A DNA stretch of 64,000 nucleotides from Escherichia coli (GTDB taxonomy: Bacteria > Pseudomonadota > Gammaproteobacteria > Enterobacterales > Enterobacteriaceae), in NCBI RefSeq assembly GCF_024700885.2, contig NZ_CP117016.1. One strand, given 5' to 3'. Shown here one piece after another: positions 31,701-34,700 of the stretch (positions are counted from its first letter, which is position 1; each line of letters starts with the position of its first letter). The position numbers are program-made.

Positions 31701-34700
31701 GTTGAAGCTCGGGAGAGCGATCAGCAGGCGGCAAAACGCTGGTAGTTTTTTGTTAGCCGGATAAGGCACCGCTGCGTCCGGCAATTTCACCGCTCAGTAC
31801 ATGCGTTTACGCTGCGTCGATGCACAGCCTCATCATTTTGCAGTATCCTTAAGATATTCCTTATATCTTCAGGAGATCGTCATGGACAGATTCCCACGTT
31901 CTGATTCAATTGTACACCCCCGGGCTGGCTTGCAAACTTATATGGCGCAAGTCTATGGCTGGATGACCGTTGGCTTGTTGCTGACCGCATTTGTTGCCTG
32001 GTATGCGGCTAATTCCGCGGCCGTGATGGAGCTGTTGTTCACTAACCGTGTCTTTTTAATCGGTCTGATCATCGCGCAATTAGCATTGGTTATTGTGTTA
32101 TCAGCGATGATTCAAAAGCTGAGCGCAGGTGTAACGACGATGCTCTTTATGCTTTATTCGGCGCTGACGGGTCTTACGCTTTCCAGTATTTTCATTGTCT
32201 ATACCGCTGCTTCTATCGCCAGTACTTTCGTCGTTACTGCCGGGATGTTTGGCGCAATGAGCCTGTACGGTTACACCACGAAGCGCGATCTAAGCGGCTT
32301 TGGCAATATGCTGTTTATGGCGTTAATCGGCATTGTGCTGGCATCGCTGGTCAACTTCTGGCTGAAAAGCGAAGCATTGATGTGGGCAGTTACCTACATC
32401 GGCGTGATTGTCTTTGTCGGATTGACGGCGTATGACACTCAGAAATTGAAAAATATGGGTGAGCAGATTGATACCCGCGACACGTCGAACCTGCGCAAAT
32501 ATTCCATTCTTGGCGCGTTAACCTTGTATCTGGACTTCATCAACTTGTTCCTGATGTTGTTGCGGATCTTCGGCAACCGCCGTTAATTCTTTTTCACCAT
32601 CAATATCCCGGCCATGTGTCGGGATTTTTTTCTTACTAAAAACGACACTTAACAAGTACCAGGTATAAAATATGCCTTATGGCCGAGCGGAAGTGTTTTC
32701 CGTATCCATAAATACAAAAATATTTTGTATGCGTGGTTTTAAATTTATTGATGGTGAATATTAATATTTTTTCTAAGGACAACTAAAAGAATGGAATCAT
32801 ACTCGCAAAACAGCAATAAATTAGATTTTCAGCACGAGGCCAGGATATTAAACGGTATATGGCTCATTACCGCTTTGGGTATGGTGGCAACCGCAGAGCT
32901 GGCCCTGGTGATCATCATGGATGCCGCATTAATGAGTGAACGACCCGTTTGGGTAATAAGTTGCTTAATGATTGTGTTATGGTCAGGCATTATCTCGCAT
33001 GGACGAAATAAGCTCCTTGAACTGGCAGGAAAATGCCATAGCGAAGAGTTGTGGAGTCCGGTTCGTTGCGCTTTTACAGGTGCATTAACACTCTATTACT
33101 ATTTTATCGGCTTCTTTGGGATACTTGCCGCGATAGCTATAACGCTTGTCTGGCAAAGGCATACGCGTTTTTTTCATTAGTCGTAAATGCACATACTAAA
33201 GAACTTAACTAAACTTCACATCGCCGCTTCATTTTTCGCTCGTAGCTTCTTCGCCTGGCTTTCCAGTAGCAGGTAACAGATCAGCGCCAGCAGCAGTGGG
33301 ATAAAGTAATACAGCACACGGTAAGCGAGTAGGGCGGCGATAATTGTACCTTTGGAGGTATGCTCCCCAGCCAGTAGCGCGATAAATACCGCTTCCAGCA
33401 CACCAATTCCCGCCGGAATATGCACGATGACGCCAGCAATACTACTAACCAGTAACACGCCCAGTACAAAGAAATAGTTTACGCTTTGACCGAGTAACAG
33501 CCAGATAATCGCTCCCATTACCATCCAGTTAACGCTGGAAATCAGCATCTGGGCGAGGGCAAATTTCCATGAAGGCAGCACCAGTTTTTGTCCTTTGATG
33601 GTCATATGGCGGTGCTTCGCGAAAGCGCAAAACCACAAATAAACCGCGATAATCATCAGTAAGCCAATGCCGAGAATGCGCAGCGTGGTTTGATCGACAT
33701 ACCAGTGGTCCGGCAGCTCCACCACGCCTGCGGTAAAGATAATCCCGGCCAGCAAAATATAGCCCAGCCAGTTGGTGGTAATACTGAGCGAGAAAATCCG
33801 CGTAATAGTGCTGCCCGGTAACCCTAGCCGGGAGTACAAACGATAGCGCATACCAATGCCGCCGACCCAGGTACTAAGCGTCAGGTTGAAGGCGTAGCAG
33901 ATAAACGACACCAGCATCACCTGGCGCTTCGCCAGTTTGTGACCGCAGTAAAAGCGGGCGAGCAGATCATAGCAGCCGTAAATCAGATAACTGACGACCA
34001 CCAGCCCGACCGCACTGAGCAACGCAACGCGATTGTAGTCGCGGATGACCTTCCAGACCTCTTCCCAGTCCACCTTTTTGGCGTAGACCACCAGCAACAC
34101 TATCACCGCGATAAAAAACAGCCAGGTGAGGATCTTCTTTGCTAAGCGCCAGCGTGGGTGTGATTTACTCATCAGGGTTTTACCCCCGTGTTTTCAGTTT
34201 CTACCCGATCCTGCGTTTCCATTGTCGGCTGAGCGGGCGGGTCAACCTGCGCCAGACGTGGCGTGTGTGCCGGAAGCCAGCCGACCAGCGCCGGGAAGTG
34301 GCGTAAAAAGTGGAAGGCCAGCACGCTTTTGGTCAGATTCCACCAGGTGCGTTTGGGCAGCATGGTTTCATCCACCTGCTGGCAGTCTGCGGCGATAATG
34401 CCGTTTAGATTATCGCGCAGCGTCTGGTTAAAATGACGATCGTGGATGATGACATTTGCTTCGAGATTCAGTGACAAACTGAGCGGATCGAGATTACTGG
34501 ACCCTACTGTCGCCCAGTGATCGTCCATCAATGCTACTTTGCCGTGGAGCGGGCGGCGGCGGTACTCAAAAACCTGAACGCCACCTTTAACCAGATAGTT
34601 ATACAGCAAGCGTGCACCGACTCTGACAATCGGCATATCCGGTTCGCCCTGAATGATCAGTTTGATCCGCACCCCGCGCCGTGCCGCTTTACGCAAGGCG

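Follow-up and report, generated by a model that had tools for sequence, protein, structure and literature searches.

The gene between ybhL and ybhN in the 64,000-nucleotide stretch of Escherichia coli DNA analysed here (hereafter, the window) is an internally deleted allele of ybhM, which we denote Delta-ybhM. We consider it very probable that this allele is a derived form, generated by a repeat-mediated in-frame deletion, and that it codes for a three-helix remnant that is most likely a loss-of-function product drifting neutrally on an old haplotype.

Structure of the ybhM locus

The interval between the stop codon of ybhL, which ends at position 32586, and that of ybhN, which starts at 33216 on the minus strand, spans 629 bp (32587-33215). 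It holds one ORF of 129 codons with an ATG start (32791-33180, plus strand), preceded by a 204-bp AT-rich leader (32587-32790; GC 0.324, as compared to 0.495 for the whole window), much as the initial annotation of this sequence had described it. That annotation had also put K-12 YbhM at about 237 aa, and correctly so: in the K-12 derivative XL1-Blue the same interval measures 953 bp and contains a ybhM gene of 714 bp, coding for 237 aa. K-12 therefore shares neither the 129-codon ORF nor the interval length. The gene order moaE-ybhL-X-ybhN-clsB, with X being the gene in question, is common to the window and K-12.

Global alignment of the window with K-12 retrieved one clean in-frame gap of 324 bp (108 codons), flanked by sequences that are about 96% identical to K-12 (23 mismatches in 629 aligned bases). 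The gap removes codons 36-143 of K-12 ybhM and leaves the first 35 and the last 94 codons in place. Of the two possibilities raised at the outset, namely an internally deleted or a replaced ybhM allele, the former is borne out by this single gap; the latter is unsupported, since both flanks consist of collinear ybhM sequence. These collinear flanks, together with the position between ybhL and ybhN, identify Delta-ybhM as the ortholog of K-12 ybhM. Its 129-aa product is identical to the RefSeq protein WP_000446922.1.

The upstream neighbor, ybhL (31882-32586, plus strand; named after the annotation in identical genomes), is a full-length Bax inhibitor-1/YccA family gene of 234 aa that matches the full Pfam Bax1-I profile with 212 bits. 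A mechanical ORF list placed the ybhL start at an upstream ATG (31801), which would yield 261 aa; the start at 31882 is supported both by the annotation in RefSeq and by the Pfam match. The convergent downstream neighbor, ybhN (33216-34172, minus strand, 318 aa), is unaffected.

The deletion junction

Both ends of the deletion fall within an imperfect direct repeat of 11 bp, CAGGG(C/T)TGGCC, the two copies of which are identical at 10/11 positions and lie 324 bp apart. In long alleles the left copy occupies nucleotides 104-114 of the coding sequence, reading GCAGGGCTGGCC followed by TGG in the O157 and ST131 types and carrying a GGA variant in the K-12 and O111 types. The right copy (coding nucleotides 428-438, ACAGGGTTGGCC followed by CTGG) is found exactly 324 bp downstream. 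The two copies also resemble each other at the protein level, the one in helix 1 encoding T-A-G-L-A and the one in helix 5 encoding L-T-G-L-A, and the repeat is also found in outgroup ybhM genes. A single copy survives in the window, at 32894-32904 (plus strand), where the sequence reads CAGAGCTGGCC and the 324 bp present in the long alleles are missing.

The junction of the short alleles C4 and O139 reads GCAGGGCTGGCCCTGG, so that the left copy continues past the C/T mismatch before giving way to the right-hand sequence; this places the crossover inside the repeat. The junction copy in the window shows an extra G-to-A change (Gly36Glu) that occurs in neither repeat copy of any long allele examined. 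No mobile element was found at the junction. For these comparisons the coding sequences were anchored manually on the repeat; in the MAFFT alignment the 5' portion of the short alleles was wrongly positioned.

Such an anatomy points to illegitimate recombination or replication slippage between the two 11-bp copies as the probable mechanism of the deletion. The event would have eliminated residues 36-143, joined helix 1 with helix 5, and spared the promoter, the ribosome-binding site, the start codon, the reading frame, helices 6-7 and the stop codon.

Leader and expression signals

The leader itself is not unusual, as it is 204 bp long in K-12 as well. Directly after ybhL, a consensus scan detected an intrinsic-terminator-like stem-loop with a T-run (32605-32634, plus strand), in which a stem of 8 pairs (5 of them G-C) is followed by TTTTTTCTTA; the K-12 sequence is identical, and the element may act as a terminator. 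Further downstream, the sigma-70 promoter of ybhM, ACGACA-16-TATAAA (32642-32669, plus strand), is intact, its hexamers being readable directly and also recovered by the scan. A genomic SELEX study lists the same promoter in the ybhL-ybhM spacer and flags it for H-NS (PMC3946193). The ATG at 32791 is preceded, at a distance of 11 bases, by a ribosome-binding site, AAGGA (32775-32779). Leader, promoter and ribosome-binding site correspond to those of K-12, as do the start and the stop, and the sequence gives no sign of impaired transcription or translation initiation for Delta-ybhM. An Rfam scan of the leader and the ORF retrieved no family match, the sole hit being at chance level (E = 0.89).

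In a subset of short-allele genomes, among them AR_0372 (positions 410-868 of its locus), Nord122, DA33137 and WP7-S18-ESBL-09, an IS200C element resides inside the ybhL-Delta-ybhM leader, upstream of the remnant ORF. In E. coli STEC384 (NZ_CP091029.1; positions 1294-1998 of the extracted locus, L004), the ybhL-ybhM leader contains a third tandem BI-1 family gene of 234 aa (WP_001299026.1). This gene replaces part of the leader and alters the first ~12 codons of ybhM; the same arrangement may be present in genomes whose match was confined to the ybhM half of the query (~50% and 62% coverage).

The predicted protein

K-12 YbhM scores 75.1 bits against the Pfam Bax1-I profile (PF01027), over profile positions 3-205. 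For the 129-aa protein the match is limited to positions 127-205, and its score of 30.4 bits is below the gathering cut-off of 34.1 bits. NCBIfam models matched neither the short nor the long form. The AlphaFold model of the long form (pLDDT 81, pTM 0.78) shows seven helices (residues 3-43, 54-76, 79-100, 103-127, 134-154, 159-192 and 198-236), and that of the remnant (pLDDT 72.6) shows three (3-48, 53-84 and 90-128), with the fused helix 1/5 modelled as continuous. Hydropathy agrees with these helix maps.

Residues 36-143 run from the last part of helix 1 through helices 2-4 into the first part of helix 5. The deletion thus removes 108 of the 237 residues, or four helix-equivalents, leaving three predicted helices where the Bax inhibitor-1 family has seven transmembrane helices. 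The resulting chimeric helix (codons 20-47; 32848-32931, plus strand) is composed, according to hydropathy and the AlphaFold models, of the front of helix 1 and the back of helix 5. It contains three substitutions specific to the window when polarised against 14 long alleles: L31M (32881-32883), G36E (32896-32898) and N44D (32920-32922), all on the plus strand. Since an even number of spans was lost, and since helices 1 and 5 run in the same direction, helices 6-7 should keep their orientation in the remnant. As predicted, the remnant would be unable to form the seven-helix Bax inhibitor-1 fold, which makes loss of function the most likely consequence. A comparison of the model with PDB 4PGR (the BsYetJ fold) yielded no significant structural match.

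Frequency of the short allele

The short form is a common allele and is not private to the window strain. An 80-bp junction probe of the window haplotype matched 467 of 5,426 complete E. coli genomes under a threshold (E <= 1e-24) that is out of reach for long alleles, with all matches covering at least 96% of the probe. A second probe, designed on the type-2 haplotype (P0071/L019), added 107 genomes with few overlaps. Combined, the short-allele carriers amount to ~570 of the 5,426 complete genomes (~10%), in several haplotypes. A count of 1,270 carriers, obtained from genomes without the K-12 324-bp segment, was rejected as an overestimate, since megablast misses the ST131-type alleles, which have no 28-mer in common with K-12.

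The exact protein WP_000446922.1 is present on at least 1,000 public contigs, within a cluster of 452 variants, and its carriers include the complete genomes MLI114 and 1190 as well as O166:H15 isolates. PGAP labels it either "hypothetical protein" or "Bax inhibitor 1 family protein". The allele is therefore real, ordinary and, as a RefSeq protein, already catalogued. In the literature searched we found no paper describing a short ybhM allele, and the E. coli papers mentioning ybhM included none on its function.

The window is 99.996% identical to strain MLI114 over 49 kb, and its clone comprises ~25 complete genomes, the O166:H15 isolates among them; our literature search retrieved no sequence type or phylogroup for this O166:H15 clone. 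By the same identity to MLI114, the region at ~9397-19083, next to ybhB, carries P22-like prophage genes, including a tailspike (~16210-18795), an antirepressor, Arc-family repressors and a DNA transfer protein. Between rhlE and dinG (~44015-48017), the MLI114 annotation places a type III effector, EspX2 (~46005-48017), and a 561-aa hypothetical protein (~44015-45700).

Other lesions in ybhM

Among the sampled ybhM genes (loci L010, L017 and L018), the annotation gives a frameshift for two long copies, those of STEC2018-607 and MSB2_1A, and for one short copy, that of ETEC1738. IS1 is found within ybhM in FXCREC180, TW10598, MSB1_1D, PK8277 and HCP8S3_I1, and IS5 was reported in ybhM of RR1/HB101 (PMC5379014). 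Public proteins further include at least four other variants with in-frame internal deletions; they lack 29, 42, 21 and 16 residues and are 208, 195, 216 and 221 aa long, respectively (P0023, P0027, P0031, P0017 and P0014). The 29-residue deletion matches a 22-nt direct repeat with a spacing of 87 bp in K-12 ybhM (positions 3664-3685 and 3751-3772 of the XL1-Blue locus, L001). The gene thus seems generally prone to repeat-mediated deletion. This collection of lesions shows that ybhM is dispensable, and that it is eroding in E. coli by several routes.

Origin and fate of the short allele

All 68 YbhM homologues that we found belong to Escherichia or Shigella. The ybhM genes of E. albertii and of three divergent Escherichia code for 237 aa, and since these outgroups carry the long form, the long form is ancestral and the short form derived. 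In two of the divergent Escherichia loci (L028 and L029) a co-directional DUF3969 gene is found downstream of ybhM; in the third (L027) a sulfatase gene precedes ybhM, and ~235 bp separate ybhM from ybhN. The short-allele proteins form a series, leading from a plain fusion (...ALGLVATAGLALVIIMNAAL..., in P0072 and P0073) through L31M (C4 and O139) to G36E plus N44D in the window, which is the most derived of the short forms.

These observations bear on several other explanations of the short interval. An assembly or sequencing artefact can be dismissed, since 23 independent complete genomes share an identical 1,029-bp region and 467 carry the junction. The opposite polarity, in which the short form would be ancestral and the 237-aa form would have arisen by internal insertion or duplication, is hardly conceivable: nothing beyond the length difference speaks for it, and it is contradicted by the 237-aa outgroup genes, by the match of the long form to the whole Bax1-I profile and, end to end, to the paralogue YbhL, and by the absence of four of the seven helices from the short form. 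It is possible, if doubtful, that the 11-bp repeat pair gave rise to this deletion on more than one independent occasion, a scenario that is compatible with our main explanation and differs from it in history alone. The window haplotype (type 1) and type 2 (L019) differ at 19 of 390 coding positions, on both sides and right up to the junction (8 of these differences fall inside the junction probe); the two types carry both of the Gly36 codon variants (GGG/GAG and GGA) known from the left repeat of long alleles; and the other repeat-mediated deletions show the gene to be slippage-prone. However, the variant 252C is common to all short haplotypes except the recombinant C4/TC_EC10. It is present in the outgroups and in 0/10 sampled E. 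coli long alleles, so that the short haplotypes fall into one rare, deep haplogroup. Mosaics, moreover, are at hand: C4 and TC_EC10 have a type-2-like 3' end, NRZ14408 combines a type-2 5' end with a type-1 3' end, and P0077 shows the reverse, implying recombination frequent enough to produce the differences in the flanks. The 3' half of type 2 matches only 20 genomes at >=99%, and the best long allele reaches 97.1%; taken together with 252C, this indicates that the haplogroup is old and deep-branching. We hence favor one old deletion followed by divergence and recombination, the allele presumably having diversified and recombined on its old, deep-branching haplotype ever since.

The pattern of substitutions was then considered with respect to the fate of the remnant. 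Long alleles show a pN/pS of 0.24. Along the short lineage, changes to states absent from all 14 long alleles (a reference that includes 4 outgroup genes) amounted to 9 nonsynonymous and 2 synonymous, a small count, with P = 0.56 under neutrality and P = 0.018 under the long-allele value (omega = 0.24). Within these small numbers, the ratio points to a relaxed constraint on the short allele after the deletion. A signal of purifying selection on the C-terminal part of the remnant (3 nonsynonymous to 9 synonymous "short-only" changes, P = 9e-5) was rejected, because outgroups showed most of these synonymous states to be ancestral and the re-polarised count became 9:2. Pairwise pN/pS among short alleles (0.24) was set aside as uninformative, since C4 and NRZ14408 are recombinants with imported polymorphism.

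We regard it as unlikely that selection has maintained the remnant as a working three-helix protein of the inner membrane, with a new or partial role (for example together with YbhL, YccA or FtsH) and with G36E and N44D as adaptive changes. Such a possibility draws on the 129-codon ORF, which is intact in most carriers across haplotypes ~5% apart, the window among them, so that the window allele is not a pseudogene in the sense of a disrupted frame; on the preserved predicted topology with its continuous fused helix; on the intact promoter and ribosome-binding site; and on the stepwise series from fusion to L31M to G36E and N44D, with 6 of the 9 derived amino-acid changes falling in the fused helix, a clustering that could reflect adaptation as well as decay. 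Against it stand the 9:2 ratio, which is what would be expected without constraint, the disappearance of the synonymous excess outside the fused helix after outgroup polarisation, the sub-threshold Pfam score, and the circulation of frameshifted, truncated and stop-loss variants in a minority of short-allele carriers. Even less probable, in our estimate, is the specific version in which the remnant is still made and kept for a new inner-membrane role in modulating YbhL, YccA or FtsH, with L31M, G36E and N44D as successive steps of adaptive tuning. If true, a membrane protein would here have been remodelled in nature by an internal deletion that preserves its topology. The loss-of-function remnant remains, by a clear preference, our explanation for Delta-ybhM.

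Discussion

In ~10% of E. coli genomes PGAP annotates a 129-aa "hypothetical protein", which could be given the label of what it is, an internally deleted ybhM; pan-genome and presence/absence studies should treat it as an allele of ybhM rather than as a separate family. Beyond annotation, the significance of the short allele is small. The erosion of ybhM, a genus-restricted, H-NS-associated BI-1 paralogue, forms a background for assigning a function to this gene. Induction of ybhM on lettuce has been described for O157 Sakai (PMC6891304).

Among known systems, the closest to Delta-ybhM is K-12 ybhM (b0787), coding for an inner-membrane protein of the Bax inhibitor-1/YccA family, with which it shares the position between ybhL and ybhN, the leader and the promoter. 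It differs from the K-12 gene in lacking codons 36-143, in its three rather than seven predicted helices, and in the L31M, G36E and N44D changes within the fused helix.

The relation to the neighboring paralogue YbhL, which like YccA and BsYetJ is a canonical bacterial BI-1/TMBIM protein, is more distant. The initial annotation held that the 129-aa protein does not resemble YbhL, which is correct only in part: residues 47-109 align with YbhL residues 161-223 (BLASTP E = 2e-07, 25% identity), so that helices 2-3 of the remnant correspond to helices 6-7 of YbhL. Full-length YbhM aligns with YbhL from end to end and is just 23% identical to it. In helices 6 and 7, YbhL reads AYDTQ and LYLDF where YbhM reads SHGRN and LYYYF, so that YbhM has H/G and Y in place of the two aspartates of YbhL, both of which are absent. 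This aspartate pair would correspond to the di-aspartyl pH sensor of BsYetJ, located in its helices 6 and 7. If so, even the full-length YbhM may not work in the manner of a canonical BI-1 protein.

The deletion itself resembles the RecA-independent, slippage-type deletions that occur between short direct repeats, in that its ends lie in a repeat, one repeat copy survives and no mobile element is involved; the likeness lies in the junction anatomy.
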